This document shows positions 2,546-48,782 of a DNA stretch of 64,000 nt, piece after piece (position 1 is the stretch's first letter; each line of letters starts with the position of its first letter). Made by a program: the position numbers and the translations under genes. Source of the stretch: Polyangiaceae bacterium (GTDB lineage Bacteria > Desulfobacterota > Binatia > UTPRO1); contig JANNPN010000214.1 of the NCBI GenBank assembly GCA_031400185.1, positions 5,205 to 69,204 of the forward strand, read 5' to 3'. The notes under the pieces are model-generated. The model saw only the letters and a program-made list of their open reading frames with translations, did not search any database and was not told the origin of the DNA.

Positions 2546-2636
2546 CTCCGCGCTATCAAAACGGCCGAGCGCTCACGTAGCACAGAACCCCCCTTCAGGC
2601 AAAGCGCGATGTACGGTCATCCCCAGTTGTTCCAGT

Positions 2637-2652
2637 TGTTTCACGTGGAACA
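2637..2652. promoter_or_regulatory. parS-like site TGTTTCACGTGGAACA (1 mismatch to consensus), preceded by tandem CCAGTTGTT CCAGTTGTT
   Basis: Direct match to parS consensus TGTTNCACGTGAAACA except G at position 11; located 92 bp upstream of parA start. Confidence 0.6.
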
Positions 2653-3244: not shown

Positions 3245-3260
3245 TGTTCCACGTGAAACA
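3245..3260. promoter_or_regulatory. parS site TGTTCCACGTGAAACA (perfect match to TGTTNCACGTGAAACA)
   Basis: 16-bp palindromic parS consensus immediately after the rsmG stop codon. Confidence 0.7.
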
Positions 3261-3905
3261 TCACCCTGGCATTGTCAGGACCTCGACGCAGCGAGGCCGA
3301 TAGTCACCGATCCGGTAGCGCAAAATCGTCTCGCGGACGTACGGGGGTGGCACCGCGTGCAACGGCTCCGAGCGCATCCAAAAGAGTCGGCCGTGGTCCG
3401 CGAGCCACTCCTGTGCAACGCCTCCAAGCGCATCATCCGACCAGGTCGCCCGCGACACGACGGCATCCGCCGTATGGGCGTACTCGGATGGCGGGGTCTC
3501 GGCTCGCTGCTCCAACACCCTGACGTTCGGCAGATCGAGCGTGCGGCGAACCTCGTGTAGGAACGATGCGCGACGCCTTCGCGCCTCGACGAGCACGAAC
3601 CTCTGGTCTGGGCGAAGAATCGCGAGCGGGATTCCGGGGAAGCCCGCGCCGGTTCCGAGGTCGACGATGCATCCACTCGGCAGCGCAGCCACGAGGGCGA
3701 GTGAATCGAGGAGGTGACGCTCGACGAGCTCTCCCGCGGAGCGACACGAAATCAGATTCATCTTTGGCGCCCAGACGTCCAGCACGTCCGCGAAGCGACC
3801 GAGGTTGGTCGCCGCCGAAGGACTGATCTCAATTCCGAGCGCCGCGGCGCCCGCGATCAGATGGTCTCGGTCAGCTTCTCGGAGTCGCAAGCTCGTCGAG
3901 CTCAC
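3261..3905 (-). CDS. rsmG: 16S rRNA (guanine527-N7)-methyltransferase RsmG (GidB)
   Basis: SAM-MTase motif [16 protein letters not shown]; conserved position downstream of mnmG; start may be later than 3905 (35-nt overlap with mnmG). Confidence 0.85.
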
Positions 3906-5706: not shown

Positions 5707-5721
5707 GGTTCGACGCCGAAC

Positions 5722-7107: not shown

Positions 7108-7156
7108 GTGGGACCGCGATGGGGTTGGAGACCGTGAAGCTGAGTGGAACGGCGCG

Positions 7157-8842
7157 CTACGCCGCTGCTTGCTCGGCCGGCCTCGCCGGCTCCCGATTCG
7201 ACCACCACTGCTGCGCGATCGTCAGCACGTTGTTCACGAGCCAATACAGCACCAACCCGGACGGGAAACTGATGAACATCACCGTGAACATCACCGGCAT
7301 GAGGATCATCATCATTCGCTGCTGGGCTGGGTCCATGCCCGTCGCAGGCGACAGCCATTGCTGGAGGATCATGCTGCCACCCATGAGGAGCACGAGGATG
7401 GGAATCGGGATCCCAAGCACGGCGAACTCGTTGCACCCGCTGATCGTCCCTTGTCCGGGCCACGGATAGCACTCGTGTGCCGACAAGTCGCGCACCCAGA
7501 ATGCGAACTTTGCATGGCGGAGCTCGATTGCTTGGCTGAGCGCCTGGTACAGGCCGATGAAGACCGGGAACTGCAGCAGCATCGGAAGACAGCCCCCGAG
7601 GGGGTTCACGCGATGCCGCCGGTAGAGCTCGATCATCTCCTTGTTCAGACGCTCGCGGTCGTCCTTGTACTTCTCGCGGAGCTTCACCATCTGCGGTTGC
7701 AGCCGCTGCATGTCGCGCATCGATCTCATGCTGCGATTGGTGAGCGGGATAAAGAGCACCTTCACGAGGATCGTGAGAAGAATGATGTCGACCCCGTAGT
7801 TGCGGGTGATGCTGTGGAACAACTTCAGAAGGCGGAGCAGGGGAATTGCGAGGAATGAAAACCACCCGAAGTCGACGGCGCGGTCGAGCTGATGTCCCGC
7901 CGCCGCCAGCACCTCAACGTCCTTCGGGCCGACGTACACCGTGAAACGTGTCCCTCCGTCGGGCGCGCGCGCGCTCGTGAGCAGCAACTGAACGCCGCCG
8001 TTCTCGGGGCTGACGGTCGCTCGCGCCTGCGTTGGCTCAGCCGGGATCAGCGCAGCGACGAAGTAATGATCCGCGTAGCTGACCCAGCCGACCGGTGATG
8101 CGAAGGCCTGCGGCGGCGCGGACGCGATGCTGGTCGCGAGCTCGCGCACGACCTTCTTGTCGGCGAGTACGGCGGTCCCGCGGTAGTACAACTCTGGGTC
8201 ACCCGCGACCGCCTCGACGATCTGGTGCCGCCATCCGAGCCCCACGCGCGTGAGTCGGTCGGAGGCGCCGCCCGTACGGACCTCCACCCCGATAGGATAA
8301 CTCGCACCGCTGAAAGTGAGCGTCTTCTCGATCGTCGCCCCAGAGGGCAACGTTCCACGCAGAACGACGGTACCGGTATCCGAGCCCCGAAGGGTGACCT
8401 CGCGATGATCGCTCGCGTAGGCGACCTGCGTGTCGTCCTCGACGACCTTGCCGTCGTCGGATGCGAGTCGGACACCAAGCGGGGCGGCCGCCGTCGGGCC
8501 GACCTGGATCATCTCGAGCGGGGCACTCTCGGACATCACCGCGGTGCGGTACCCCTTGAGCTTGAGGCTGACGATGCGACCGCCGACGGGCGAGATCTCA
8601 GCCGTGAAGACATCGGTCTCGACACGGATCGGCTCGCCGACCGCCACGGGCGCCGCCTCTGCCGGTGCCGGCGCCGCTGCGAGATTTCCTTCAGAGGGTG
8701 CACGGGCCTCCACGGGAGGCGATACTTCCGCGGTGGGTGCGGCTCCCTCGGGCGGCAGCGGATAGAAGTACCGCAGCGCCTCCTGGTAGCCGACCAGCAC
8801 GACGAGACACAAAACCGCTGCGAGAAGCGCGCGCCGTTCCAT
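7157..8842 (-). CDS. yidC: membrane protein insertase YidC
   Basis: 561 aa, N-terminal TM plus periplasmic domain, C-terminal 5-TM 60 kDa IMP core; conserved rnpA-yidD-yidC-mnmE synteny. Confidence 0.9.
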   Translation of the reverse strand: MERRALLAAVLCLVVLVGYQEALRYFYPLPPEGAAPTAEVSPPVEARAPSEGNLAAAPAPAEAAPVAVGEPIRVETDVFTAEISPVGGRIVSLKLKGYRTAVMSESAPLEMIQVGPTAAAPLGVRLASDDGKVVEDDTQVAYASDHREVTLRGSDTGTVVLRGTLPSGATIEKTLTFSGASYPIGVEVRTGGASDRLTRVGLGWRHQIVEAVAGDPELYYRGTAVLADKKVVRELATSIASAPPQAFASPVGWVSYADHYFVAALIPAEPTQARATVSPENGGVQLLLTSARAPDGGTRFTVYVGPKDVEVLAAAGHQLDRAVDFGWFSFLAIPLLRLLKLFHSITRNYGVDIILLTILVKVLFIPLTNRSMRSMRDMQRLQPQMVKLREKYKDDRERLNKEMIELYRRHRVNPLGGCLPMLLQFPVFIGLYQALSQAIELRHAKFAFWVRDLSAHECYPWPGQGTISGCNEFAVLGIPIPILVLLMGGSMILQQWLSPATGMDPAQQRMMMILMPVMFTVMFISFPSGLVLYWLVNNVLTIAQQWWSNREPARPAEQAAA

Positions 8843-8845
8843 CCG

Positions 8846-9088
8846 CTATCGCAAGCTTGAGGGCACGGGATCCACGCCGATCTCCGACCAGGGATGACAG
8901 CGCAGCAAGCGCCACACGGCAAACAACCCGCCGCGCACGATGCCATGGGTCAACACAGCCTGCTCCGCGTACGACGAGCATGTCGGGTGAAAACGGCACG
9001 CGGGGGCGAGAAGCGGCGACACGGCGAGCCGATACGCGCGAATGGGAAGCACGGCAAGAGTCCTCACGACGAGCATGAGACGGCTCAC
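8846..9088 (-). CDS. yidD: membrane protein insertion efficiency factor YidD
   Basis: 80 aa with [15 protein letters not shown]...RLLRCHPW...GVDPVP hallmark. Confidence 0.8.
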
Positions 9089-9453
9089 TTCGAGTTGGAG
9101 CGAGGTGAAGCGGAAGCATCGAACGCGATCGCGAGCTCGTGTTGCACAACCTGCATGGGAACGGCGCCGACGCCTTCCCTTGCAATGACGATCACGTCAT
9201 GCCCGAGTGCGTCACGTGCCGGATGGCGTCGGAAGACCTCACGAATGCGGCGCTTCAGCCCGTTCCTGGTGACCGCATCACCGACCTTACGACTCACCGT
9301 CACGCCGAGCCTCGCCTCGCCAGACGTACGACGCATGAGCAACACGAAGCTCGCCGTCCGCCGCTTTTCGCCGGTCCGTCCCAATGACAAGAACTCCCGA
9401 CGACGACGAATGCGCGCCGCCTTGGGGAAGCCCTGGCCATGCCGGGGCGTCAT
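9085..9453 (-). CDS. rnpA: ribonuclease P protein component RnpA
   Basis: 122 aa basic protein, RRRxEF / KRRIRE motifs; start overlaps rpmH stop (ATGA). Confidence 0.85.
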
Positions 9454-9608
9454 CTCGGCTGCTTCGGAGGGATCGAGACGGTCAGTCGCTTGCGACCCTT
9501 GGCACGCCTGCGCTTGAGGATGTTACGTCCTCCGGGCGTGGCCATGCGGGCGAGAAACCCATGGGTTCGCTTGCGACGGGTGTTGCTCGGTTGAAATGTT
9601 CGTTTCAT
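9450..9608 (-). CDS. rpmH: 50S ribosomal protein L34
   Basis: Manual minus-strand translation [52 protein letters not shown]; below 60-aa ORF-track cutoff. Confidence 0.85.
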
Positions 9609-9654
9609 GAAGTGTCGGCCTATCCATCACAGCGGCTGGCCGCTGTCAATTTAC

Positions 9655-9882
9655 TCACGCCACTGCAGCAGGTTCCGCGGCTGCGGCCGCCGTTTTGGTC
9701 TTACCATGCTCATCGCACTTCGATCCGACCGCACGCGGCTTTCGACATGCTTCCGCGGTGCAGATCTTGAAGCGGCCCTTTGGAAGGGTGCCCTGTCGCC
9801 ATTGCTTGTAGTGCCGTGCGCAGTAGCCCTTGCCGACCGCGTCGCGCGCACATCCCTCGAACTTACAGCTACCCTTCGACAT
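9655..9882 (-). CDS. small Cys-rich protein with two tandem C-x4-C-x9-C-x2-H motifs (putative zinc-binding)
   Basis: 75 aa; CKFEGC..YCARH and CTAEAC..KCDEH repeats; basic, Ala-rich tail. Confidence 0.5.
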   Translation of the reverse strand: MSKGSCKFEGCARDAVGKGYCARHYKQWRQGTLPKGRFKICTAEACRKPRAVGSKCDEHGKTKTAAAAAEPAAVA

Positions 9883-10025
9883 TCGAAAACCTTCCTTCCG
9901 GACCTCGGCACGTCGCCGGCGCGAGGCAGCCGGGGTGTCTCACATAGGGCCGGGCATGGCAAGCAACCGCCCACCCACGAAGTTCCTATAGGAGCCGAAA
10001 GCACGACCTGGTAGGACGCCTGCGA

Positions 10026-10631
10026 ATGTCGCTCAAGTACGCCATCCTGAGCTTGCTCTCCCACGATCCGCTGACCGGCTACGAGCTCATGAAGCTCTTC
10101 GACGGCTCCGTCGGATACTTCTGGCACGCGACGCACCCGCAGATCTACAAAGAGCTCGGTCGGCTCGAACGCGCCGGGCAGGTCGTGCACCGCAGCGTCG
10201 AGCAGCGAGGACGGCCGACCAAGAAGATCTACTCGCTGAGCGACCTGGGTCGGAACGAGCTGCTCGAATGGCTACACGTTCCCGCCGGGACGCAGCGAGT
10301 CAAAGACGAGATGATGCTGAAGACTTTCTGCTGCGGCCTCTTGTCCGAGGCGGAAGCTCTGGACCTGGTCCGCCGCCATCGTCAGCAGCACGAGGTCAAG
10401 CTGCAACGCTACCAAGAGCTGGAGCGCTTTCTCGAGAGCGGCCTCAACACGGCGAACCGCGATCGACTCGGACCGTATCTGACGTTGCTTCGCGGCATCC
10501 GCTACGAGCGCGACTACATCGGGTGGTGCGACGAAGCCGTGCGGCTGCTCCGTCGGATCGACCACGCGCTCCCGCCGCAACCCGTGTCCCGAGAGATGAC
10601 CGCGAAAGCCCCGCGCAAACGCAGGAGCTGA
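10026..10631 (+). CDS. PadR family transcriptional regulator (with C-terminal dimerization domain)
   Basis: N-terminal wHTH LSLLSHDPLTGYELMKLF...WHATHPQIYKELGRLERAG characteristic of PadR. Confidence 0.85.
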   Translation: MSLKYAILSLLSHDPLTGYELMKLFDGSVGYFWHATHPQIYKELGRLERAGQVVHRSVEQRGRPTKKIYSLSDLGRNELLEWLHVPAGTQRVKDEMMLKTFCCGLLSEAEALDLVRRHRQQHEVKLQRYQELERFLESGLNTANRDRLGPYLTLLRGIRYERDYIGWCDEAVRLLRRIDHALPPQPVSREMTAKAPRKRRS

Positions 10632-10637
10632 CGCCTC

Positions 10638-13157
10638 TTACGACCCGGTCGGTTCGACCGTACCGGCGTCGTTGGCAACACCGTTTCCGGCTGTTCCGTT
10701 GCTGGTGCCGGTGCCGCCGTCCTCCTCGTCCTGTTCCGCAAGACGCGCGAGACTGACGACGCGCTCGCCTTCCTCGATGTCGATGAGGCGCACGCCCTGG
10801 GTGTTCCGACCGATCACGCGAATGTCCGCGACGCGGAGGCGAATGATTTTTCCCGTGCTCGTCACGAGCATCAGGTTGTCCTCATCCGTCACTTGCTGGA
10901 CGCCGATCACGGCGCCGGTCCGGTCCGTCGCCTTCATCGTGATGATGCCTTTGCCGCCGCGCGACTGGACCCGGTACTCGGCGATGTCGGTGCGCTTCCC
11001 GTAGCCGTTCTCCGCGACCGTGAGCACGCTTGCACCCGGGCTAAGGATCTCGAGGCTCACGACTTCGTCGTTTTCCTCGAGCGTGATGCCCTTCACGCCT
11101 CCGGCGCTCCGGCCCATGCTGCGGACGTCGCCTTCGGCGAAGCGAATCGCCTGGCCGTCGCGAGTCGTGAGGATCACCTCTTGTTGCCCGTCCGTGAGCC
11201 GGACGCCGATCAACTCGTCGTTCGTGTCGAGATTGATAGCGATGATCCCGGACGGACGCGGGTTCGCGTACGCCATCAGGTCCGTCTTCTTTACGACGCC
11301 TTGCTTCGTCGCGAAGAACACGAAGTGGTTCTCGCGGAACTCGCGGACCGGCAAGAAGGCAGAGATCTTCTCGTCAGGCTTCAGCTCGAGCAGGTTGACG
11401 ATGGCCTTGCCGCGCGCCGCCCGTCCTGCCTGCGGGACCTCGTGCACCTTGATCCAGTACACTTTGCCTGCGGTCGTGAAGAACAGGAGGAAGCTGTGCG
11501 TCGAGGCGATGAACAGGTGCTCGACGAAGTCTTCCTCGCGCGTCGTTGCGCCGATCTTGCCCTTGCCCCCGCGACGCTGGGCTCGGTACAGGGACACCGG
11601 GTTCCGCTTGATGTAGCCCTCGTGCGAGATCGTGACCGCCATGTCCTCGTCGGCGATCATGTCCTCGATCGAGATGTCGCCGATCTCGTCGACGATCTCC
11701 GTGCGTCGGGCGTCCCCGTACGTCTCTTTGAGGTCGCGCATTTCCTGAACGATGATCTTGGAGATTTCGCGCTCGTCCGAGAGGATCGCGCGCAAGCGCA
11801 CGATCAGCGCCTCGACCTCGCGGTACTCCTCGATGATCTTGTCGCGCTCGAGGTTCGTGAGCCGTTGCAAGCGCATGTCGAGGATCGCTTGTGCTTGCAG
11901 CTCGGACAGGGAGAACGTCGCGACCAAACCATCCTTGGCGATCGCAGGGTTTGCGGCTTTGCGGATGAGCGCGATCACCGCGTCGAGGTTCTCGATCGCG
12001 ATCTTCAAGCCTTCGAGGATGTGTAGCCGGTCCTCCGCCTTCCGCAGGTCGAAGATGGTCCGTCGAGTGACGACCTCGACTCGGTGGGCGACGAAGTGCT
12101 GCAGCATGGCCTTGAGACTCAGCAGCCGCGGGCGATTCTCGACGATCGCCAGCATGATCATCCCGAAGGACTCCTGCATCGGCGTCATCTTGTAGAGCTG
12201 GTTCAGCACGATCTCCGGCACGGCATCGCGCCGGAGCTCGACGACGACGCGCATGCCTTGCCGATCGGATTCGTCGCGGAGATCGTAGATGCCCTCGATA
12301 CGCTTCTCGTTCACGAGCTCCGCGATGCGCTCGAGGAGACGGGCCTTGTTCACTTGGTAGGGGATCTCCGTGACGATGATGCTCGTTCGATTGCTCTTCT
12401 TGTCGACCTCGGTGGTGGCGCGAGCGCGGACCTGCAGGACGCCTTTCCCGGTCTCGTAGGCTTCCCGGATCGGCCCCCTGCCGTGAATGAACCCGGCTGT
12501 CGGGAAATCCGGCCCTGGAACGTGTTGCATCAGCTCGACGACGGTGATCCCGGGGTTCGCGATCAGTGCGATCACTGCGTCGGTGAGCTCGTTCAGGTTG
12601 TGCGGCGGGATGTTCGTGGTCATTCCGACGGCGATCCCCGAGCTGCCGTTCAAGAGCAGGTTCGGAAGCTTCGCGGGCATCACCCGCGGCTCTTTCAGCG
12701 TCTCGTCGTAGTTCGGGCTGAACTCGACGGTCTCCTTGTCGAGGTCCGCCAGCAGCTCGCTCGCGATTCGCGCCATGCGGATCTCGGTGTACCGCATGGC
12801 GGCCGCCGGATCGCCGTCGACCGAGCCGAAGTTGCCCTGGCCGTCGACCAGCGGGTAACGCATCGAGAAGTCCTGCGCCATGCGAACGATGGCGTCGTAC
12901 ACCGCCGAGTCGCCGTGCGGGTGGTACTTGCCGATGACGTCGCCGACAACACGCGCCGACTTTTTGTAGCCCCGATTCCACTCGTTCCCGAGGTCGTACA
13001 TCGCGTAGAGAATGCGGCGATGCACCGGTTTCAACCCGTCGCGCACGTCGGGTAGCGCGCGGCGAATGATGACGCTCATTGCGTAGTCCATGTAGGACTG
13101 ACGCATTTCGTCTTCGATGTTGACCGGAATCCGGTTGTGCTTGAGCGGTGACTCCAT
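10638..13157 (-). CDS. gyrA: DNA gyrase subunit A
   Basis: 839 aa; [23 protein letters not shown], active-site Tyr region, C-terminal beta-pinwheel repeats. Confidence 0.95.
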
Positions 13158-13168
13158 CGGTCAGGGCA

Positions 13169-15613
<2,445 letters not shown>

Positions 15614-15725
15614 CTAGCGCGACGGGGCCGACCCACGGCCCTCCCAAACCCCGCTCCATCCCCTCACCTGCAGCCTAGCAAGCGGGTGCCGAAGGGTAAA
15701 GCTTTCCGCCTTCTACATCCGCGGC

Positions 15726-16841
15726 TTAGAGCCGCATCGGCATGACAACGTAGGAGTAGGTTTCATCCTCCTGCATGCGCAGGATTCCGGGGCTCACCTC
15801 GTCGGTGAGGCCGATCTCGACGATGCCGGACACGCCGCTCAGTTGCAGCACGTCGAGCAAATAGCGAGCGTTGAACCCGATCGCGAACTCGTCGCCGGCG
15901 TAGTCTGCCTCGAGCTCCTCGCGGGCCTCACCAATGTCGGGGTTGGTCGTTGCAACCTCGAGCAGCCCGTTCTCGACGCGGAGCTTCACGCCTCGGGCAC
16001 GTTCGCTGGAGAGAATCGACACGCGGCGCAGCGCACCAAGCAGCTCTGCGCTCCCGACTCTGACATGTCGCTTGCTTTCTTTCGGAATCACCTGCCGGTA
16101 GTCGGGGAACTCACCCTCGATCAGGCGCATGAACAGCTCGACGCCGGCGCGCTCGATCCGAGCGAGATTTCCGCCGATCGAGAAGCTGATCTCGCCGTCG
16201 CCGACTTCGAGCAGACGACGCGCTTCGACGAGACCCTTCCGCGGCAGAATGACCCCGGGCTTGATCTCGACTCCCGTGACCTCGCGTTCGACGAGAGCAA
16301 GCCGGTGGCCGTCGGTCGCCACCATGCGGACCTGGTTCTTCTCGACGCTTTCGATGAACACGCCGCCGAGACTCAAACGGGTCTCGTCGGTGGAGACCGC
16401 GAACAGCGTCTTCTCGATCATCTCGCCAAGCGCGTCACTCGGGAGATGCATTACCACCGTGCCCTTTTTCGCCGCGGGAGTCGCTGCTGGAATGCTCGGG
16501 AAATCCTTCGGGTCGATCGAAAGCATACGGTACCGAGCGCGGCCGCCCGTCACCTCGACGCTCCCGCCGCCGGCCTTCAGGACCACCTCGTCGCTCGGAA
16601 GCTCGCGAACGATCTCGTAGAGCTTCCGCGCGTTCAGGGTGATCGAGCCCGCCTGTGCGACCTTTCCCCGACACGATCGGCGAACGCCGACTTCCAGGTC
16701 GGTGGCGGTCAGTTGAATGTCAGCTCCAGTGGCCTCGATCAGGACGTTCGCGAGGATCGGAAGCGTGTTGCGCTTCTCGACGACTCCTTGGGTCAGGTAG
16801 AGGCCTTGCAAGAAGTCGTTCTTTTCGACGCGAAGATCCAT
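15726..16841 (-). CDS. dnaN: DNA polymerase III beta sliding clamp
   Basis: 371 aa, three-domain clamp, position between dnaA and gyrB. Confidence 0.9.
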   Translation of the reverse strand: MDLRVEKNDFLQGLYLTQGVVEKRNTLPILANVLIEATGADIQLTATDLEVGVRRSCRGKVAQAGSITLNARKLYEIVRELPSDEVVLKAGGGSVEVTGGRARYRMLSIDPKDFPSIPAATPAAKKGTVVMHLPSDALGEMIEKTLFAVSTDETRLSLGGVFIESVEKNQVRMVATDGHRLALVEREVTGVEIKPGVILPRKGLVEARRLLEVGDGEISFSIGGNLARIERAGVELFMRLIEGEFPDYRQVIPKESKRHVRVGSAELLGALRRVSILSSERARGVKLRVENGLLEVATTNPDIGEAREELEADYAGDEFAIGFNARYLLDVLQLSGVSGIVEIGLTDEVSPGILRMQEDETYSYVVMPMRL

Positions 16842-17096
16842 CGTCCAGGGTCCCTCGGTAAGAAAGCGAGCCTTTGTAGCCTAGTGTCTTTAGAGAAGTA
16901 AATTAGAAGAGCTAGTAGTAGTAGGCACGCGGATTCGGTGGATACAGGGGCCAACTAGCGAAGGTCGCAGCGTTTCACTTGTGCACGCCGGTGGACGGAG
17001 CACCCACGATGAAGCCAACGCACGACGTCTGGTCGTCCGTGTCCCCAGGGGCTCCAGCGAGAATCCCCACGCCATCCAACGATCATCCACAGGCAG
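16842..17096. other. putative oriC (dnaA-dnaN intergenic): AT-rich stretch ~16870-16925 plus DnaA-box-like 9-mers (TCATCCACA at ~17080; GGTGGATAC; TTGTGCACG)
   Basis: Local AT-rich segment ttgtagcctagtgtctttagagaagtaaattagaagagctagtagtagtagg in a ~70% GC genome; DnaA-box variants by eye. Confidence 0.4.
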
Positions 17097-18443
17097 TCAG
17101 GATTTCGTTCGCGCGAGTCGTTCGAGCTCGTCGATCACCGCGCGGAGCTGGTGGTCGTCCTTGAGACGGCGCTCGATCGTGTTGTTCCCGTGAATGACGG
17201 TCGAGTGGTCGCGCCCACCGAAGCGCTCGCCGATGACGGGGAATGACGACCCGGTGAGCTTGCGGGCGAGAAACATCGCGATCTGGCGTGGGAACGCGAT
17301 GTTGCGTGTCCGCTTCTGCGAGAGCAGGTCGCCGAGACGAATACCGTGATGCTCGCACACGACGCGTTGGATGGTCTCGATGCTCACGGTCGACCGGTCG
17401 CGCAGGAGATCCTGGAGGACGTGGCGGGCGAAATCCACGGTGATGGCGGTCTTGGAGAGCGAGGCGAAAGCCGAAAGACGCGTCAGGCACCCTTCGAGCT
17501 CACGGACGTTCGAGTCGATCTTCGAAGCGAGGTGGATGGCGACCTCACGCGGAAGCTCGAGACCGTCAATTTCGGCCTTCTTCTCGAGGATCGCGACGCG
17601 GGTCTCCATGTCCGGCGGCTGAACATCGGCGATGAGCCCCCACTCGAAGCGATTGCGCAGACGTTCCTCCAGGCCGGGGATGTCCTTCGGTACCGTGTCG
17701 GACGTGAGGATGATCTGCTTGTGCGACTCGTGCAGAGCGTTGAAGGTGTGGAAGAACTCTTCCTGCGTGCGCTCGCGGTTCGCCAGGAACTGCACGTCGT
17801 CGACGATCAGGATATCGATCTTCCGAAACGTGGATTTGAACTCCTCCATCCGGTCGCGGCGGAGCGCTGTGATCAGTTGGGTCATGAACACTTCGGCGCT
17901 CAGATACGCGACGCGTGTCTCGGAGTCGGCCTCGAGGGCGGCGTGACCGATCGCATTCGCGAGGTGGGTCTTGCCGAGCCCGACGCCGCCGTAGAGGAAG
18001 AGCGGATTGTAGTGGTGTCCAGGTTGGGCGGCGACCGCTTTGCACGCGGCGTTCGCGAACTGGTTGCTCGCCCCGACCACGAAAGTTGCGAAGGTATACC
18101 GCGGCACCAGGGCGCCGAACCGGATCGGGCGTCGTTTGCCCGCAGGCGCGTCGCCAGGGAAAAGCTCGCCTTGCGCACGGCCCGCGACGATTACGCTCAC
18201 GCGGCACGGCTTCCCGACTGCGCGCATCGCATCCTCGAGACCGCCGGGATAGTGCAACGTCATCCAGCTCGCGGCAGTTGTCGTCGGCGCAACCAGTCGG
18301 AGCTCGTCGCCGTCCATGCCGGCGAACCGTAACGTCTCGACGCCGGATTGGAACGCTTCGCGTCCGAAGCGAGCCAACAAGATCTCACGTGCACGCTGCC
18401 ACGCGAGATCGGGCGCATCTTCAACGGGTGCCGGGCGGCTCAT
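17097..18443 (-). CDS. dnaA: chromosomal replication initiator DnaA (start moved to internal Met; ORF upstream extension looks non-coding)
   Basis: Domain I-like N-term, AAA+ GGVGLGKTHL Walker A, C-terminal DNA-binding domain; 448 aa from MSRPAPVED. Confidence 0.9.
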   Translation of the reverse strand: MSRPAPVEDAPDLAWQRAREILLARFGREAFQSGVETLRFAGMDGDELRLVAPTTTAASWMTLHYPGGLEDAMRAVGKPCRVSVIVAGRAQGELFPGDAPAGKRRPIRFGALVPRYTFATFVVGASNQFANAACKAVAAQPGHHYNPLFLYGGVGLGKTHLANAIGHAALEADSETRVAYLSAEVFMTQLITALRRDRMEEFKSTFRKIDILIVDDVQFLANRERTQEEFFHTFNALHESHKQIILTSDTVPKDIPGLEERLRNRFEWGLIADVQPPDMETRVAILEKKAEIDGLELPREVAIHLASKIDSNVRELEGCLTRLSAFASLSKTAITVDFARHVLQDLLRDRSTVSIETIQRVVCEHHGIRLGDLLSQKRTRNIAFPRQIAMFLARKLTGSSFPVIGERFGGRDHSTVIHGNNTIERRLKDDHQLRAVIDELERLARTKS

Positions 18444-18628
18444 CGCGTCCGCAGCCAATGTCGTGTCACAGGGCAGACCCAGGAACGGCGAGACGCGGAT
18501 CTGTAGACGCTTTGCCGGGGGTTCGCAAGCAAAAATCTTCGCGACCGGCGCGGAGCGGCGCACGTTGATTGCCTCTGACCGCAGTGGTACCTGCAGCACC
18601 TCGCGCTCGCCGCGCTTTCCGTGTCGCT

Positions 18629-19906
18629 GTGACGACGCTCTCGACAAAGCTCTACGACGAAGCGTCCCGGCTCTTTCCCGGGGGCGTCAACAGCCCCGTA
18701 CGCGCGTGGCGGAACGTTGACGGGACACCGCTTTTCATCTCGCGTGCGCGCGGTGCGACCATCACCGATGCGGACGGACGCACATACCGCGATTTCGTCG
18801 GGTCGTGGGGCGCCGCGATCGCCGGCCACGCGCATCCCGACGTCGTCGCCGCAGTGAATCGAGCCGTCGCGTCGGGTCTCGGCTTCGGCGCGCCGACGCC
18901 CGCAGAGATCGCGCTCGGGCGAGCCATCACCGAAGCGATGCCGTCGATTCAGCGCATCCGCATGGTGAACTCCGGCACCGAGGCGACGATGTCCGCGATC
19001 CGCGTCGCTCGCGCGTTCACCGGGCGGCCGAAGATCCTCAAGTTCGCCGGGTGCTATCACGGGCATTCCGACGGCCTGTTGGCTCGAGCCGGCTCTGGGG
19101 CGCTCACGTTCGGAGTACCCGACAGCGCAGGAGTCCCGGAGTCGGTGGCCTCGAACACGCTCGTCGCGGCGTTCAATTCGGCCGAGGCCGAGGCGTATCT
19201 CGAGGCGTACGGCAACGAGCTCGCGGCGGTCATCGTCGAGCCGATCGCGGCCAACATGGGCGTCGTCCCCCCCGCGCCCGGTTTCCTCGAGCGTCTGCGG
19301 GAAGCGACGCGGAACCACGGTACCCTGCTGATCTTCGACGAGGTGATCTCCGGCTTCCGTGTCGCGCGCGGCGGAGCTCAAGCGCTCCTCGGGATCGAGC
19401 CAGACCTTACGTGTCTCGGCAAGATCATCGGGGGCGGCCTACCCGTAGGCGCGTTCGGTGGACGACGCGACGTCATGGAGTTGCTCGCCCCGCTCGGGCC
19501 CGTCTACCAAGCAGGAACGCTCTCCGGGAACCCCGTGACCATGGCCGCGGGAAACGCGACGCTCGGCGTACTCGATGCAAAGGCTTTTGGCCGTCTCGAG
19601 ACGATGGGAAGGCACATTGCGGCCGGGCTCGAAGAAGCATTGCGCCGGACGGGCATCGTCGGCTGCGTGCAACGGGTCGGATCGATGTTCACCCTCTTAT
19701 TCGGCGTCGAATCCGCGGCGAACCTGGTCGAGGTGGAGCGTGCAGACCGGGACCGCTTCCGACGGTTCTTTTACGGCATGCTCGAGCGAGGCTTCTACCT
19801 CCCCCCCTCGCCGTTCGAGGCGTCCTTCGTGTCGCTGGCGCACACGGAAGCGGACGTCGACGCGTTTGTCGCCGCGGCGGTCGAAACCTTGCAGTCGCTC
19901 GAGTGA
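18629..19906 (+). CDS. hemL: glutamate-1-semialdehyde 2,1-aminomutase HemL (GTG start chosen)
   Basis: LFPGGVNSPVRA N-terminal signature, class-III PLP aminotransferase, ~426 aa; divergent from dnaA. Confidence 0.85.
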   Translation: MTTLSTKLYDEASRLFPGGVNSPVRAWRNVDGTPLFISRARGATITDADGRTYRDFVGSWGAAIAGHAHPDVVAAVNRAVASGLGFGAPTPAEIALGRAITEAMPSIQRIRMVNSGTEATMSAIRVARAFTGRPKILKFAGCYHGHSDGLLARAGSGALTFGVPDSAGVPESVASNTLVAAFNSAEAEAYLEAYGNELAAVIVEPIAANMGVVPPAPGFLERLREATRNHGTLLIFDEVISGFRVARGGAQALLGIEPDLTCLGKIIGGGLPVGAFGGRRDVMELLAPLGPVYQAGTLSGNPVTMAAGNATLGVLDAKAFGRLETMGRHIAAGLEEALRRTGIVGCVQRVGSMFTLLFGVESAANLVEVERADRDRFRRFFYGMLERGFYLPPSPFEASFVSLAHTEADVDAFVAAAVETLQSLE

Positions 19907-36285: not shown

Positions 36286-36489
36286 TCAGCGCTCGACGCG
36301 GAACGAGACTTCGGCCCGAATGCGGAAGACGTCGACCTTGTCCTTGTTCATGCGAACGTCGAACTCCTTCACGCCGATGCGCGTGATGCCCCGCAACGAC
36401 TTCTGCGCCTCGGAGATCACGACCTTGATCGCATCGTCCCAACTCTTCGGTGACTCTCCAACGAGCTCGATGATCTTTACGACCGACAT
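36286..36489 (-). CDS. dodecin family flavin-binding protein
   Basis: 67 aa, MSVVKIIELVGESPKSWDDAIKVVI... matches dodecin pattern. Confidence 0.75.
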   Translation of the reverse strand: MSVVKIIELVGESPKSWDDAIKVVISEAQKSLRGITRIGVKEFDVRMNKDKVDVFRIRAEVSFRVER

Positions 36490-41515: not shown

Positions 41516-41995
41516 ATGACGATCGATCGTGCCGAGCTCCGTCGCGTCATGGGTCACTTCGCAACCGGGGTCGCCGTCATCACCACGCGCGACGACGACG
41601 ACCGGCCCTACGGTCTCACCGCGAACGCGCTCTGCTCCGTCTCGCTCGACCCCCCGCTGCTTCTCGTGTGCGTCGACAAGAAAGCCGAGAGCCACCCTGC
41701 GTTCACGCGGTCCGGCGTCTTCGCGGTCAACATCCTCGGACACGAGCATGAGGACCTGTCGCGGCGGTTCGCGGTCTCGGGCGGTGAGAAGTTCGTCGAT
41801 GTCGCTCATCGGACGGGCGTGACCGGGGCCCCGTTGCTCGAGGGCGTGCTCGGCGTCGTGGAGTGCCGCGTGGTTGCCGTCCACGACGCGGGCGACCACA
41901 CCATCTACATCGGTGAGGTCGCGCACCTCGAGACCGGCGACGGCCACCCGCTGCTGTTTTTTCGTGGGAAATACCGGCGGTTGCACGAAGACTGA
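41516..41995 (+). CDS. flavin reductase-like (NAD(P)H:flavin oxidoreductase, HpaC family)
   Basis: MGHFATGVAVITT...YGLTANALCSVSLDPPLLLVCV signature. Confidence 0.8.
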   Translation: MTIDRAELRRVMGHFATGVAVITTRDDDDRPYGLTANALCSVSLDPPLLLVCVDKKAESHPAFTRSGVFAVNILGHEHEDLSRRFAVSGGEKFVDVAHRTGVTGAPLLEGVLGVVECRVVAVHDAGDHTIYIGEVAHLETGDGHPLLFFRGKYRRLHED

Positions 41996-42058: not shown

Positions 42059-43605
42059 ATGTCCGTCACGCCGCAATTGGGCATCGTCGTCCTCGCCGCC
42101 GGTCGCGGCACGCGTATGCGATCCGACCGGGCCAAGGTCCTCCACGCGGTGGCTGGAAAGCCGTTCATCGTCTCCGTGCTCGAGACGGCGGCAGCCCTCG
42201 CGCCGGATCGGCTCGCGGTCGTGGTCGGTCATGATGCCGACGAGGTCGAGCGGGTCTGTGAAGCGCATTTCGCGCGCCGGCCGATCGCCGGATCCGTCGC
42301 CTATCCGCGCCAGGTCGAGCAGCGCGGGACGGGCGACGCGGTGCGCTCCGCGGCCGGCGCGTTCGAAGGCTTCGACGGCGACGTGTTGATCCTCTACGGC
42401 GACGTGCCCGGCCTCGCCGTTCCTACCCTGCAGGCCCTGCTCGATCAGCATTGCGCGCGGCACGCCGAGCTTTCGCTCCTCACGACCGAGGTCGACGACC
42501 CGACCGGCTACGGCCGCATCCTGCGCCATGCCGACGGGTCGCTCCGCGGGATCGTCGAGCACAAGGACTTGGCGCCCGCCGAGCGGGGCGTGCGCGAGAT
42601 CAACCCCGGCATCTACTGTGTGCGGTCGCGCGCGCTCTGGCCCGCCCTCGCACGCTTGCGCGCGGACAACGCCCAGAGCGAATACTACCTGACGGATATC
42701 GTGGCGATGGCCGTCGAGGCGGGAGCAACCGTCGTGACGCGTACCGTCCCCGATCCCGGCGAGGTCGCCGGCATCAACTCACGAGCGGACATGTCGAACC
42801 TGGAGCAACGGGCGCGGAAGGCGCTGGTCGAGAAGTGGATGCGCGCGGGGGTCACGTTTCGCGATCCCGCAACCGCGTACATCGAAGAGGACGTCACGAT
42901 CGGAAGCGACACGGAGATCGGACCGAACGTGCAGTTGCTCGGCCGGACGACGGTCGGCCGCGGCTGTCGGCTCGACGGCACGGCCTTTTTGCAGGACGCG
43001 ACGCTCGGCGACGGCGTGCACTTGCGTCTCGGTGTCGTGCTGACCGAGTGCGAGGTCGGCGACGGCGCGATCATTGGGCCATTCGCGCATCTCCGTCCCG
43101 GCACAGTGCTCGGGCCCGAGGTCCATATCGGCAACTTCGTCGAGGCGAAGAAGGCCAAGCTCGGACGCGGCACGAAGGCGAACCACCTCACCTATCTCGG
43201 CGACTGCGAAATCGGCACGCGAACGAACGTCGGCGCCGGGACCATCACCTGCAACTACGACGGCTTCGCGAAGCATCGGACGGTGATCGGAGACCGCGTG
43301 CAGATTGGGAGCGACACGCAGCTCGTGGCACCGGTCACGGTCGGCGACGACGCGTACATCGGGGCGGGTACCACCGTGACGAGCGACGTTCCGGCGGGCG
43401 GGATGCTCGTCGTCAGTCGTACGCCGCAACGCATGATCGCGGGGTGGGTCGAGCGCCGCCGCGCCCGTGCCTCGGCCGCGAAGGCGAGCCCGCCGGTTCC
43501 GGCGCCGCGCAAGCTCGGGGCGGCAAAGAAACGTACTCCCAAGCGCAAGGTCGTCACCGCGCGGGGAGCAGCACGCGCCCTGGGCGGGCGCCGAGGGAAG
43601 CGCTG

Positions 43606-43606
<1 letters not shown>
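42059..43606 (+). CDS. glmU: bifunctional UDP-GlcNAc pyrophosphorylase / GlcN-1-P acetyltransferase GlmU with basic C-terminal tail
   Basis: LAAGRGTRMRS nucleotidyltransferase motif, left-handed beta-helix hexapeptide repeats, Lys/Arg-rich tail. Confidence 0.9.
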
Positions 43607-45432
<1,826 letters not shown>

Positions 45433-45525
45433 CCGGCCAACGCGCGGAAAGCCCGCGAAACCCCGTCGACTCGGGCGGCGCAGCGGGTTCCCTCTCCGGC
45501 GCCGCCCGGATATGGTTTTCCGACG

Positions 45526-46728
45526 ATGAGCCCCCATCTGGTCTCGATCGAGGAAGCCATCGCCGAGATCCGCGCGGGTCGGATGATCGTCCTCATGGAC
45601 GACGAGGACCGCGAAAACGAGGGCGACATCTGCATGGCGGCCGAGAAGGTGTCGCCCGAGGCGATCGCCTTCATGGCCCGGTACGCGCGTGGGCTGATCT
45701 GCCTTCCGCTGACGGACGAGAAGCTCGCCGAGCTCGGCCTTCCGATGATGGTAGCCGAGAACAGCACGCCTCTCGGCACCGCCTTTACGCTTTCGATCGA
45801 CGCGCGCCGCGGCATCGGCTCCGGCATCTCCGCGGCGGATCGGGCGACGACGATCCTCACGGCCGTCCGCGACGGCGCAGGTCCTGGGGACGTCACCAGT
45901 CCCGGCCACATCTTTCCGCTGCGCGCGCGTCGCGGCGGGGTCCTCGTGCGAACCGGCCAGACCGAGGGCTCCGTCGACCTGGCTCGCCTCGCCGGGCTCA
46001 AGCCCGCGGGCGTCATCTGCGAGATCATGAACGAGGACGGTTCCATGGCCCGCATGCCGGATATCGAGCGATTCGCCGCGGCCCACAATCTCAAGATCGC
46101 GACCGTCGCCGAGCTGATCCAATATCGGCTCCGCCACGATTCGCTCGTGCATCGCATCGCAGAGGCACGCCTGCCGACGCGGTTCGGTGGCGACTTCCGC
46201 GCCGTCGTGTACCGGAGCGACGTCGACGGCGGTGAGCACTTGGCACTCGTGCGCGGCACCATCACCCCCGATCAACCGACGCTCGTGCGCGCGCATGCCG
46301 AGTATCTCCCAGGTGACGTGTTCGGCTACACGCAACGCGACACCGGTGCCGTCCTGCACCAGGCGATGAAGATCATCGCCGACGAGGGCCGCGGCGTCGT
46401 GCTGTACCTCCGTCGCGAGGAGCACGGCGTCGACCTCTTCACCGGGGTCGAGGGCCCGAGCGGTCAACCGAGCACCAATCCCGGTCTCCGCCTGAACGAG
46501 TTCCGCGACTACGGCATCGGCGCGCAGATCCTGCGCGATCTCGGAGTCGGTAAGATTCGGCTCCTCACCAACCATCCTCGGCGGCTCGTGAGCCTGCCGG
46601 GTTATGGTCTCGAGATCGTCGAGCGGGTGCCGCTGTCGTCGGAGCCGCCGACGACGACCGCGGGCGGGACGGCATCGCCAGCGGAGGTTCCGAAAGCAGG
46701 CACGGGAAAGGTCGCCAAGCTCCGCTAG
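45526..46728 (+). CDS. ribBA: RibB (DHBP synthase) fused to a degenerate GTP cyclohydrolase II-like domain
   Basis: N-half RENEGD, SGISAADRA, GHIFPL intact; C-half homologous to RibA but the three Zn-ligand Cys and the Arg nucleophile are substituted. Confidence 0.85.
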   Translation: MSPHLVSIEEAIAEIRAGRMIVLMDDEDRENEGDICMAAEKVSPEAIAFMARYARGLICLPLTDEKLAELGLPMMVAENSTPLGTAFTLSIDARRGIGSGISAADRATTILTAVRDGAGPGDVTSPGHIFPLRARRGGVLVRTGQTEGSVDLARLAGLKPAGVICEIMNEDGSMARMPDIERFAAAHNLKIATVAELIQYRLRHDSLVHRIAEARLPTRFGGDFRAVVYRSDVDGGEHLALVRGTITPDQPTLVRAHAEYLPGDVFGYTQRDTGAVLHQAMKIIADEGRGVVLYLRREEHGVDLFTGVEGPSGQPSTNPGLRLNEFRDYGIGAQILRDLGVGKIRLLTNHPRRLVSLPGYGLEIVERVPLSSEPPTTTAGGTASPAEVPKAGTGKVAKLR

Positions 46729-46758: not shown

Positions 46759-47340
46759 TCAGCGAAAGCTCACACCTATGAGCCCGAAGATCGTGTTGAT
46801 CCCCGGGTTGCTGCTCGCCATCCCGGCGTTCGACATGTGGCGGAACCGTACCTGCAGGCCGACGGCCGCGTCGGGGCTGATCGCGTACTCGAGACCGGCC
46901 CCGATCGTCGACGTGAACTGCAAGCGCGTGCCCAAGTCCTGTTTCCGAAGGTCGGTATAGACGGCACCCTCGCCCGCCTCGATGAACGGTCGCAGGACAC
47001 CGTCGCCGTAGACGAGACGGATGAAGAGCGCATTCAGACCGATCTCGAAGCTCTCGGTCTTGTGCCGCCCGTGGGCGTCGTTGACGTACGCGATCCAAGG
47101 CTCGATCATCCAGAGCGCTCGGATGCCGTACCCTTCGAACCACTGCGAGACGGGGTCCCAGATCGCCAAGCCGACGTACGGATGGGCCGCGTAGTACTGG
47201 ATCTCGCTCGACGGGTTCACGCCGCCGCCCGCGCGCACGCCCCACTCGCGGACCACCAGATGGTCGACGTCGGCCGCTGCGGTGCCAGAACCGGCGAGGA
47301 ACGCGAGCATCACGAAGACGAGCGTGCGAGCGATCCGCAT
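46759..47340 (-). CDS. PagL-like lipid A 3-O-deacylase / outer-membrane beta-barrel
   Basis: Signal peptide MRIARTLVFVMLAFLAGSGTAAA, catalytic-like FRHMSNAG (H-x-S-N), C-terminal aromatic. Confidence 0.6.
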   Translation of the reverse strand: MRIARTLVFVMLAFLAGSGTAAADVDHLVVREWGVRAGGGVNPSSEIQYYAAHPYVGLAIWDPVSQWFEGYGIRALWMIEPWIAYVNDAHGRHKTESFEIGLNALFIRLVYGDGVLRPFIEAGEGAVYTDLRKQDLGTRLQFTSTIGAGLEYAISPDAAVGLQVRFRHMSNAGMASSNPGINTIFGLIGVSFR

Positions 47341-47409: not shown

Positions 47410-47880
47410 ATGCCCTGGCAGCTCCGGGTCACCGGGCTCCTCGCCACGTTCCTCTTTGCGACCGCGGGGTACGCGGCGGGGCCGTCGATCGACACCAAGT
47501 GGGGCATCGAGCCGCCTACGAATCCCGACACGAGCGAGCTCGCGCTCACCGTGACGGTCGAGAAGGGATGGCATCTGAACGCCAACGATCCCGACCGACC
47601 GTACGTCATTCCGACGACGCTCGAGATCGAGTCCCCGAGCGGGACGACGATCGCCAGCATCCGCTATCCCGAACCGGTGGTCCGCGAGCTCGGCTTCGCG
47701 AAAGGGACGCTGCTCCGCCTTTACGAGGGCACGTTCAAGATCGGGGTGCGCGTCGCGGGCGCCGTGCCGCCACGGTTCGACGCCAAGCTCGGCTACCAGG
47801 CATGCAACGACGAGACATGCCTCCCGCCGAAGAAGCTCGAGGTTCCGTTCGACGCCAAGGCCGTCGGAGTTGCCAAGTGA
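47410..47880 (+). CDS. DsbD N-terminal (alpha) domain-like periplasmic protein
   Basis: Signal peptide, LGYQACNDETCLPP resembles DsbDalpha YQGCxxxxCYPP Cys pair; only C-terminal part of 376-aa ORF. Confidence 0.55.
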   Translation: MPWQLRVTGLLATFLFATAGYAAGPSIDTKWGIEPPTNPDTSELALTVTVEKGWHLNANDPDRPYVIPTTLEIESPSGTTIASIRYPEPVVRELGFAKGTLLRLYEGTFKIGVRVAGAVPPRFDAKLGYQACNDETCLPPKKLEVPFDAKAVGVAK

Positions 47881-48782
47881 GCCCTCCGGCGGGCGACCTC
47901 GGCGGCACGTTGCTGCGCGCGAGCGCCGCGGGGGAGACCGTGCGCGCGCTCGCTGCCATCACCACGGGTGTGGTCGAGGAGGCGCGCCAGCGCCACGGAA
48001 CCTACCCAACGGCAACCGCCGCGCTCGGGCGCACCCTCACAGCCGGACTGCTCCTCGGGGCGACGATGAAGGACGAGGAGGGGCTCTCGATCGAGATCGT
48101 CGGCGATGGCCCGCTCCGCCGCGTCATGGTGACGACGAACGGCCAGGGCCGCGTCCGCGGGTACGTCTCGCGGCCGGAGACCCACCTGCCGTCGAGGAAC
48201 GGCAAGCTCGACGTCGCGGGCGCGATCGGCGACGGTCTCCTCTGCGTCATGCGGACGCAACCGTGGAACAAGGAGCCCTACCGGAGCGTCATGAAGCTCG
48301 TCTCCGGCGAGATCGCCGAGGACATCACGCACTACCTGGTCACCTCGGAGCAGATGCCGTCGGCGACCGCGCTCGGTGTGTTCGTGAATGCGGACGGTGC
48401 GGTCGGGGCCGCGGGCGGCTACCTCGTGCAGATCCTGAACGGCGCCGCCACGGGGCTCGCGGAGCTGATCGAGCGGAACGTCGCGCGGTTGCCGCACGTG
48501 ACCAACCTCATCCGGCGTGGCGACGGTCCGGGGGAGATCCTGACCGCCGTGCTCGCTGGGCTCGAGATCCGCACGATCGCCGACGAGCCCGTGCGCTTCG
48601 CCTGCCCGTGCAGCCGCGAGCGCGTTCTCGGCGCGATCCTGTTGCTCGGTCCGCAGGAGATCGAGGACATGATCCGCACCGAGGGTCATGCCGAGGTGCG
48701 CTGCGAGTTCTGCGCCGAGCAATACCGTGTCGAGCGCGACGAGCTCACGATGCTCGTTCGCGAGACCCAAGGCTCGGCGTGA
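47877..48782 (+). CDS. hslO: redox-regulated chaperone Hsp33
   Basis: GTG in GTGA overlap with upstream stop; C-terminal zinc centre FACPCSRER...CEFCAEQY. Confidence 0.8.
   Translation: MSPPAGDLGGTLLRASAAGETVRALAAITTGVVEEARQRHGTYPTATAALGRTLTAGLLLGATMKDEEGLSIEIVGDGPLRRVMVTTNGQGRVRGYVSRPETHLPSRNGKLDVAGAIGDGLLCVMRTQPWNKEPYRSVMKLVSGEIAEDITHYLVTSEQMPSATALGVFVNADGAVGAAGGYLVQILNGAATGLAELIERNVARLPHVTNLIRRGDGPGEILTAVLAGLEIRTIADEPVRFACPCSRERVLGAILLLGPQEIEDMIRTEGHAEVRCEFCAEQYRVERDELTMLVRETQGSA

Follow-up and report, generated by a model that had tools for sequence, protein, structure and literature searches.

RibBX proteins reportedly go back to the work of Brutinel, Dean and Gralnick in 2013 (J Bacteriol 195:5479) and are said to be known from Shewanella oneidensis, Aeromonas salmonicida, Bradyrhizobium and Rhodopseudomonas palustris. 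In the summary of Brutinel 2013 and Nouwen 2021 contained in PMC10012899, RibBX is defined as a RibB domain (the synthase of 3,4-dihydroxy-2-butanone 4-phosphate, abbreviated DHBPS) followed by a C-terminal domain that resembles GTP cyclohydrolase II (GCHII) and lacks the zinc-binding and ring-opening residues. According to the same summary, RibBX has no GCHII activity, the X domain modulates RibB, and the described genes sit in ribD-ribE-ribBX-ribH operons. A preprint on R. palustris notes that RibBX frequently carries a wrong RibBA annotation and that single RibX substitutions alter flavin-linked physiology. In Acinetobacter baumannii, RibBX is an alternative DHBPS under metal starvation (PMC12458113), and the structure 6mnz is titled 'RibBX, a two domain DHBP synthase from A. 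baumannii'. In Arabidopsis, AtRIBA2 and AtRIBA3 are bipartite proteins in which one activity has been lost by substitution of essential residues, and AtRIBA2 lacks the GCHII zinc-binding residues (PMC3509567). Herein, a gene of this kind is described at positions 45526 to 46728 (forward strand) of a 64,000-nucleotide stretch, called the window below, from a Binatia genome (assembly GCA_031400185.1, contig JANNPN010000214.1).

On sequence evidence, the gene is a RibB (DHBP synthase) fused to a GCHII-like domain that is stripped of its catalytic residues and is kept by selection. As judged at the same level, it belongs to the known RibBX arrangement, with both halves in the order of the published definition and with the zinc-binding and ring-opening residues missing from the second. 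The kind of protein is already known; what is new here is a RibBX-type lineage outside Proteobacteria, in Binatia. It is likely that the RibB half works as a magnesium-dependent enzyme, that the second half is a dead, GCHII-derived X domain supporting or regulating RibB, and that GCHII is obtained from elsewhere. The first-pass annotation, which was made from the letters of the window without database searches, had already placed a GCHII half predicted to be inactive beside an intact RibB half. That part stands, and the published RibBX class was not recognised in it.

The gene and its GCHII-like half

The gene is an uninterrupted open reading frame (ORF) of 400 codons with an ATG start and a TGA stop. 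The G+C content of the window is 66%; the ORF has a third-position G+C (GC3) of 0.85 and a codon-position profile typical of a real gene. Both Pfam domains were found at full length, DHBP_synthase (PF00926) at residues 9-200 (E 5.5e-83) and GTP_cyclohydro2 (PF00925) at residues 210-369 (E 6.8e-48), and the second match indicates that the homology to GCHII and its fold is present. The ORF, its translation and the two domains confirm the RibBA-type gene proposed in the first pass. The ribB model TIGR00506 was passed with a score of 237.1 against a cutoff of 177.45. The ribA equivalog domain model TIGR00505 was failed (118.5 bits, cutoff 205.85), and so were all the bifunctional NCBIfam equivalogs, namely NF010626 (465.5, cutoff 513), NF006803 (458.4, cutoff 569), NF006806 (444, cutoff 764) and NF009132 (362, cutoff 693).

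The C-terminal half was aligned by HMMER with Mycobacterium tuberculosis RibA2 (4i14) and with Escherichia coli RibA, for which the numbering is sound because the sequence used equals 2bz0 over residues 1-196. Tyr260 (46303-46305), Arg271 (46336-46338) and Thr273 (46342-46344) take the places of E. coli Cys54, Cys65 and Cys67 in both alignments, as had been read from the sequence before, and re-gapping does not recover the Cys triad. No cysteine is present within residues 206-372, so that no placement of gaps can restore the zinc triad. The CX2GX7CXC zinc motif is absent, and no compensating cluster of Cys or His was seen in the X domain. According to a secondary account (PMC10366380, citing Kaiser 2002), replacement of any one of the zinc cysteines abolishes zinc binding and activity. 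The E. coli residues E-G-R-N-I-G at 92-97 read E-E-H-G-V-D in the X domain, which agrees with the earlier remark that the GRNIG loop is replaced (by HGVDL). The name 'nucleophile loop' given to it at that point was a misattribution, as the literature proposes Arg128 for the nucleophile and not the GRNIG arginine (PMC10366380). Arg128 is retained as Arg327. The covalent-adduct mechanism of GCHII has recently been questioned (PMC13151069).

From a library of 1.84 billion proteins, the 150 representatives that best match the C-terminal domain were taken. Canonical-invariant positions were those at least 95% invariant across 98 canonical GCHII domains, which gave 48 positions. The family of the window protein keeps 22 of these, and the remaining 26 are replaced or deleted. 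The losses include, besides the three cysteines, Ser52, Thr56, Ser62, Gln70, Gly93, Arg94, Ile96, Gly97, Lys101, Tyr105 (deleted), Leu107, Gln108, Asp113 to Val115, Ala117, Asn118, Asp126 and Asn151. Lys154 has become Arg, and the helix of Tyr105 is deleted or replaced. Together with the missing zinc triad and the failed TIGR00505 model, these losses uphold, at the level of sequence, the earlier prediction that the GCHII-like half is inactive.

The substitutions are fixed across the family. The three Cys positions hold Tyr or Phe, Arg or Ser, and Thr in 120/120 nearest homologues (68-92% identity), which come from metagenomes and from metagenome-assembled genomes (MAGs) labelled Candidatus Binatia, Deltaproteobacteria or Thermodesulfobacteriota. 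The pattern is unchanged in remoter members at 63-67% identity. The replacement residues are near-fixed as well (Tyr54 99%, Pro56 100%, Thr67 100%, Thr118 100%, Arg154 99%), and the X domains are Cys-poor, with 0-2 Cys compared with at least 3 in canonical domains.

The ratio of nonsynonymous to synonymous substitution rates (dN/dS, omega) was calculated pairwise by the Nei-Gojobori method for the least saturated pairs (window, L001 and L081), with dS values of 0.66-1.26 that make the estimates approximate. The X half gave 0.029-0.135 and the RibB half 0.041-0.044, compared with 0.27-0.86, near-neutral, in the C-terminal tail. The contrast between the X half and the tail is clear despite the approximate estimates. 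The tail also varies in length within the family, whose proteins span 387-441 aa. The comparison of sequences thus indicates that the degenerate state of the X domain is old and maintained by selection, not a result of decay. A non-catalytic role, offered as an alternative in the first pass, is supported by this strong purifying selection on a dead domain.

The AlphaFold2 model of the protein has a mean predicted local distance difference test (pLDDT) value of 73.5 and a predicted template modelling score (pTM) of 0.74. Both domain cores are confident, with pLDDT mostly 80-98 in the RibB domain. The low-confidence segments are residues 75-99 (mobile loop 2 of RibB), 259-272 (the former zinc loop), 299-327 (the former GRGIG/Tyr105 region) and 373-400 (the tail, pLDDT <50). 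The template modelling (TM) score of the model was 0.87 with 4i14 and 0.72 with 6mnz. Foldseek matched the model to 2bz0 (E 1.6e-11) and to the GCHII half of 4i14. As modelled, the X domain retains the GCHII fold.

The catalytic set of the RibB half is canonical and comprises the acidic loop D25-D34 (DDEDRENEGD), His128, Arg142, Thr146, Glu147 and Glu166. The acidic loop and the E. coli counterparts His136, Arg150, Thr154, Glu155 and Glu174 are invariant in 117/117 family members. This half had been called intact in the first pass. The description holds for these residues and for the passed TIGR00506 model, but not for the metal-ligand His, which is Gln145 here.

Comparison with RibBX, RibBA and other degenerate lineages

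A. baumannii RibBX (6mnz) was the sole verified RibBX in the comparisons. The window protein resembles it in domain order, in the missing zinc-binding and ring-opening residues and in the fold match given above. NF010626, the model passed by 6mnz (547.8, cutoff 513), is also the best-scoring model of the window protein; the family scores 459-475 on it, marginally above its scores on the canonical model NF006803 (456-461, cutoff 569). Both proteins are of a kind commonly mis-annotated as bifunctional RibBA. The JGI name for the Binatia-type homologues is bifunctional DHBPS/GTP cyclohydrolase II, and the NCBI product name is plain DHBP synthase. NF010626 (PRK14019) itself is named 'bifunctional DHBP synthase/GTP cyclohydrolase II', a name that appears to propagate the mis-annotation of RibBX.

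The two proteins differ in several respects. The zinc positions are Y/R/T in the window protein and, as aligned, S/K/D in 6mnz, and the RibB half is Gln-type in the former and His-type in the latter. The X domain shares 32% identity (64 bits) with that of 6mnz but 46-53% with canonical GCHII domains from many phyla. For the RibB half, the values are 59% with 6mnz and 66-70% with RibBA of the canonical Desulfobacterota type. The window X domain still scores about 118 bits on TIGR00505, while 6mnz gives no match at E<=1e-20, which indicates that the window X domain is less eroded. The window gene also lies off the rib operon, beside dsbD/hsp33, and in Binatia rather than Proteobacteria.

In bootstrapped neighbor-joining (NJ) analysis, the family was monophyletic at 78% on the X domain and at 40% on the RibB domain, and a grouping of the family with 6mnz and its tree neighbours was recovered at 0-1%; the trees, made by NJ on short and fast-evolving domains, are weakly resolved. 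On balance, these comparisons favour, though not decisively, a derivation of the family independent of proteobacterial RibBX, which is more probable than an ancient shared origin. Against such an origin stand the weakness of the NJ evidence and the fact that NF010626 is the top model of the family too.

Canonical RibBA proteins (4i14, B. subtilis RibA and those of Desulfobacterota, Nitrospirota and Acidobacteriota) are close to the window protein by other measures. The best overall match is 4i14 (360 bits), and the GQTE motif of the RibB half is common to the window protein and RibBA of the Desulfobacterota type. Unlike canonical RibBA, the window protein has no CX2GX7CXC motif, no GRGIG loop and no Tyr105, it fails the bifunctional NCBIfam cutoffs, and its family was not found in a rib operon (0/13 loci). 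AtRIBA2 and AtRIBA3 share with it the retention of both domains where one activity is lost, or, for the window protein, predicted to be lost. They differ in being eukaryotic and plastid-targeted, of independent origin and part of a three-gene family, and their loss of activity is experimental, whereas that of the window protein is predicted from sequence. A paper on an A. aeolicus phosphatase was considered and has no bearing on the function of the X domain.

Fusions of RibB with a GCHII-like domain whose catalytic residues are altered were also seen in other lineages. Those of Blastocatellia, Acidobacteriota/Verrucomicrobiia, Bdellovibrionales and an actinobacterial group have different substitutions and contexts and no dsbD/hsp33 linkage, and no descriptions of them were found in the literature. 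The first lineage occurs in soil metagenomes and in Blastocatellia/Pyrinomonadaceae. Its Cys positions read N (or C)-D-T, Arg94 is replaced by His, and its NCBI name is DHBP synthase. It lies within the rib operon at 8/9 loci and is represented by L020, L022, L024, L106, L110, L115, L116, L118, L119, L124, L128, L132 and L144, and by the P0139 cluster (210 members, Blastocatellia). A second group, from Acidobacteriota/Verrucomicrobiia (L027, L037, L044, L046, L065, L068 and metagenome loci classed QCCCRH), keeps the zinc cysteines and has Tyr105->Gly and Arg128->His; it lies off rib operons (0/9). By its sequence, this group may be a GCHII paralogue of altered function.

A third group, of unannotated proteins, is doubly degenerate (P0155, P0160, P0212-P0214, P0225, P0228, P0255 and P0260; 368-402 aa). 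Leu or Ile stands where RibB has its metal ligand, the RibB half diverges strongly, and the GCHII-like half lacks the Cys triad and has Gln at His51. These nine 'RQ...' representatives were considered as RibBX of the proteobacterial type, which was rejected on the Leu/Ile metal ligand and the divergent RibB half. In a mixed set that included them, 17/48 canonical-invariant positions were kept. Further independent variants were also noted: Bdellovibrionales L045 has Y-S-D at the Cys positions and lies in a rib operon; the P0134 cluster (Actinobacteria bacterium ATB1) has A-S-T and the NCBI name DHBP synthase; and the P0132 cluster of Chloroflexota (401 aa) has the plain NCBI name 'GTP cyclohydrolase II'. 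About half of 47 two-domain representatives are without the acidic-loop and metal-ligand residues of RibB, and loss of function of the RibB half therefore seems common too.

Genomic context

The features of the gene and of its surroundings are collected in Table 1. The local order is glmU, glmS, ribBX, pagL, dsbD_N, hsp33 and a hemerythrin gene, and a Binatia-type genome of 7 Mb shows synteny with it. The upstream glmU-glmS part is retained in close relatives only. The dsbD_N gene encodes an N-terminal-domain-only form that is found in the window and in close relatives at about 156-176 aa with a signal-peptide-like start (176 aa in the L081 orthologue); full-length DsbD (621-655 aa) stands at this position in the remoter L082, L085, L089, L091, L092 and L099. 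The stop codon of dsbD_N overlaps the GTG start of hsp33 in the sequence GTGA (47877-47880).

Table 1 Features of the ribBX-type gene and of other genes in the window, with residue numbers of the encoded protein.
Feature	Position	Strand	Basis or remark
ribBX-type gene	45526..46728	+	ORF and translation; Pfam DHBP_synthase and GTP_cyclohydro2; 120 homologues at 68-92% identity
RibB (DHBP synthase) domain, residues 1-205	45526..46140	+	Pfam; TIGR00506; residue table against E. coli RibB, M. tuberculosis and 6mnz
Gln145 codon CAG, GHTE -> GQTE	45958..45960	+	Position of the Mg2+-ligand His (E. coli His153/V. cholerae His154)
X domain (predicted GCHII-like pseudoenzyme domain), residues 206-372, cysteine-free	46141..46641	+	Pfam; TIGR00505 below cutoff
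Former zinc-binding loop	46303..46344	+	Alignments; Tyr260/Arg271/Thr273 for Cys54/Cys65/Cys67
Former GRGIG loop/Tyr105 helix region, residues 299-327, ending at conserved Arg327	46420..46506	+	Alignments; low-confidence in model
Low-complexity C-terminal tail rich in Pro/Thr/Ala/Gly/Lys, residues 373-400	46642..46725	+	dN/dS; pLDDT <50
glmU	42059-43603		Pfam NTP_transferase and Hexapep
glmS, upstream neighbour	43606..45432	+	Pfam GATase and SIS
PagL-like lipid A deacylase gene	46759..47340	-	Pfam PagL, E 1.5e-21; orthologue in L081 and L085; start 47340 placed by signal-peptide-like N-terminus
DsbD N-terminal-domain-only gene (dsbD_N)	47410..47880	+	Pfam DsbD_N, E 4.4e-10
hsp33 (hslO), redox-regulated chaperone	47877..48782	+	Pfam HSP33, E 1.9e-86
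Dodecin	36289-36489	-	Pfam
Flavin reductase	41516-41992	+	Pfam

No rib or nusB neighbours were found at the window gene or at any of 13 family loci (0/13), while ribE is nearby in 92/154 other RibBA loci. A dsbD and/or hsp33 gene on the same strand lies downstream of ribBX at 11/11 informative family loci and in the window (linkage loci L001, L002, L081-L085, L088, L089, L091, L092 and L099). Hsp33 directly follows ribBX in L002 and L083, and dsbD directly follows it in L089, L092 and L099. The linkage holds where the upstream genes differ. In the 154 control RibBA loci (1.95 Mb), DsbD was found 0 times and Hsp33 once, on the other strand and about 8 kb off. Either a functional link through thiol-redox stress or inherited synteny may lie behind this linkage. 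The family loci all belong to one lineage, and part of the linkage is therefore inherited synteny. Its persistence through the rearrangement of all else is notable.

A flavin-metabolism flavour of the window had been suggested in the first pass. The dodecin and flavin reductase genes are real by Pfam, but the idea of a cluster is weak. A 'flavin island' was rejected, as dodecin is 9 kb and flavin reductase 3.5 kb away, unrelated genes lie between, and both are absent from the neighbourhood in a 73%-identical relative.

A search of the whole 64-kb window with Rfam at the gathering threshold gave no match, and so no FMN riboswitch, tRNA or small RNA family. A promoter and terminator consensus scan around ribBX gave nothing above chance. 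In the spacer between glmS and ribBX (45481-45525), close relatives share a conserved block, GTTCCCTCTCCG.CGCCG.CCGGATATGG, with a 5-bp hairpin at 45495-45510 and a T-rich run after it. The block could be a glmS terminator, or a promoter or operator of ribBX. The window is origin-proximal, with parB, mnmG, mnmE, yidC, gyrA, gyrB, dnaN and dnaA at 901-18647 on the minus strand; an rsmG-like gene on the same strand was recognised by eye only. In L082, a 70%-identical relative, ribBX lies 6-10 kb from rpmH-rnpA-yidD-yidC-mnmE-mnmG.

Competing explanations and meaning

In the RibBX-type reading, Glu30 and Gln145 would be the metal ligands of the RibB half. The X domain would descend from GCHII with its fold kept; having lost the phosphate loop and the Tyr105 helix as well as the zinc site, it would be unable to open the guanine ring. 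It would be retained as a pseudoenzyme module that aids or controls RibB through oligomerisation and/or allostery, as proposed for proteobacterial RibBX. The ribBX gene is an off-operon copy in a setting of its own next to dsbD and hsp33. The presence of DHBPS activity and the absence of GCHII activity are predictions from the residues; for the X domain, a structural or regulatory role is suggested by analogy. The GCHII for riboflavin synthesis would be supplied by another gene of the genome, outside the window, one of the two possibilities named in the first pass.

Several points weigh against this reading. A second GCHII was found by tblastn neither in the 64-kb window nor within about 10 kb either side of 12 related loci. 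Arg49, His51, Gly57, Asp58, Tyr88, Glu92 and Arg128, all canonical-invariant, are still invariant in the family, so that residual binding of nucleotide or phosphate is possible. The proposed regulatory role is borrowed, by analogy, from proteobacterial RibBX, with the low X-domain identity given above. For the RibB half, the His154Ala variant of Vibrio cholerae RibB is inactive (PMC5228156), and no biochemical study of a Gln-type DHBPS was found in the literature.

The closest canonical GCHII domain found, P0128, was considered as the lineage's own GCHII and rejected, as it is from Gemmatimonadota and lies in a classic rib operon. The next closest, P0133, also lies in a classic rib operon. Both seem to be stand-alone GCHII proteins but are RibBA fragments of the kind seen on long-read MAG contigs (ENA ERZ250395xx). 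On these contigs glmS is broken up in L081 (8103-9936), as are both ribD and ribBA in L086 and L087, and the breaks resemble frameshifts of the assembly more than pseudogenes. Tetranucleotide composition did not separate Binatia from other soil phyla of high G+C. A literature search on riboflavin in Binatia/Binatota found nothing useful.

The explanation that comes next is that the X domain has acquired a new function, either as a sensor of a ligand (a flavin, an intermediate of the pathway, or a nucleotide such as GTP) or as a new catalyst, and couples the supply of DHBP or flavin to dsbD/hsp33. It is consistent with the purifying selection on the X half, which in the closest pair (omega 0.029) is no weaker than that on the catalytic half, with the invariance of the substituted residues themselves and with the Cys-poor state of the domain. 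The retained Arg49, His51, Asp58, Tyr88, Glu92 and Arg128 could bind a phosphate-bearing ligand, and the dsbD/hsp33 linkage separates the family from the controls (0-1/154). The two segments expected to form the pocket are, however, predicted to be poorly ordered. The synteny is possibly just inherited within one lineage, and in the window the opposite-strand pagL splits ribBX from dsbD_N-hsp33, so that these genes are not one operon. We regard a new function of this kind as unlikely.

It was also considered that the whole protein is inactive, a doubly dead paralogue with a non-enzymatic role in which the change from His to Gln has killed the DHBPS too. In V. cholerae, Glu39 and His154 chelate the catalytic Mg2+ of DHBPS (PMC9305975), and the inactive His154Ala variant cited above agrees with this idea, as do the position of the gene off the rib operon and the existence of doubly degenerate RibBA-like proteins in databases. 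Gln occupies the E. coli His153 position in 117/117 family members, and Glu30 is present. Among loci of at least 6 kb with a canonical-GCHII RibBA, from genomes and metagenomes, 69 are Gln-type (about 70%) and 28 are His-type. Their rib neighbours (ribD/ribE/ribH/nusB) are present at 55/69 of the Gln-type and 20/28 of the His-type loci, and the Gln-type RibBA with such neighbours must supply DHBPS. The record titles of the Gln-type loci include Geobacter, Nitrospira, Acidobacteriota, Aminicenantes, Thermodesulfobacteriota and others. The idea that GQTE marks a second defect was therefore rejected, Gln being common in canonical, operon-resident RibBA. By sequence comparison, GQTE is rather the normal state of operon-resident RibBA in many phyla and has been inherited by the family protein; the competence of Gln-type DHBPS is suggested by this comparative genomics. 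The other catalytic positions of RibB are invariant, TIGR00506 is passed and omega is about 0.04, all of which argues against a wholly inactive protein, and we consider that explanation very improbable. The structural literature consulted treats the Mg-ligand His of DHBPS as fixed.

A protein that is still a bifunctional RibBA, with a GCHII-like domain that uses a different metal site or mechanism, would fit the clear homology to GCHII, the retained Arg128 and Arg49 and the lack of another GCHII nearby. The three zinc ligands are gone, though, with zero Cys and no cluster of Cys or His to compensate; neither Tyr105 nor the GRGIG loop is retained, 26/48 positions are lost and TIGR00505 falls far below its cutoff. 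In the accounts given in PMC10012899 and PMC3509567, the experimentally tested proteins of the RibBX/AtRIBA2 kind are all without GCHII activity. Retained bifunctionality is thus barely plausible. That the C-terminal half is a functionless remnant heading for deletion, as the lost active-site residues, the two segments predicted to be disordered and the near-neutral tail could suggest, is scarcely credible, as it is contradicted by the X-half omega of 0.03-0.14, by substitutions fixed in 120 homologues down to 68% identity and again at 63-67%, by the lack of frameshifts or truncations and by a fold core modelled with high confidence.

Beyond the RibBX-type reading, a wider proposal can be put forward as speculation with a small chance of being right. 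GCHII-derived pseudoenzyme domains fused to RibB would have arisen repeatedly across bacterial phyla that are not related, and the dead, cysteine-free one in Binatia would be a sensor or regulator of an auxiliary, off-operon DHBP synthase coupled to dsbD/hsp33. It would sustain or tune the supply of flavin precursor when oxidative or metal stress makes canonical GCHII and other Zn-thiolate enzymes fail.

For annotation, the label 'bifunctional' would lead metabolic reconstructions of Binatia to assign to these proteins, wrongly, the committed step that opens the GTP branch of riboflavin synthesis. For riboflavin enzymologists, the natural Gln at the Mg ligand of RibB and the strict dsbD/hsp33 linkage of this lineage may be useful. 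The Binatia family takes the RibBX phenomenon outside Proteobacteria. Seen beside the other degenerate lineages, it suggests that RibBA fusions have repeatedly lost GCHII chemistry while the domain itself was kept. This recurrence makes the non-catalytic role of the X domain a general question and not a proteobacterial curiosity.

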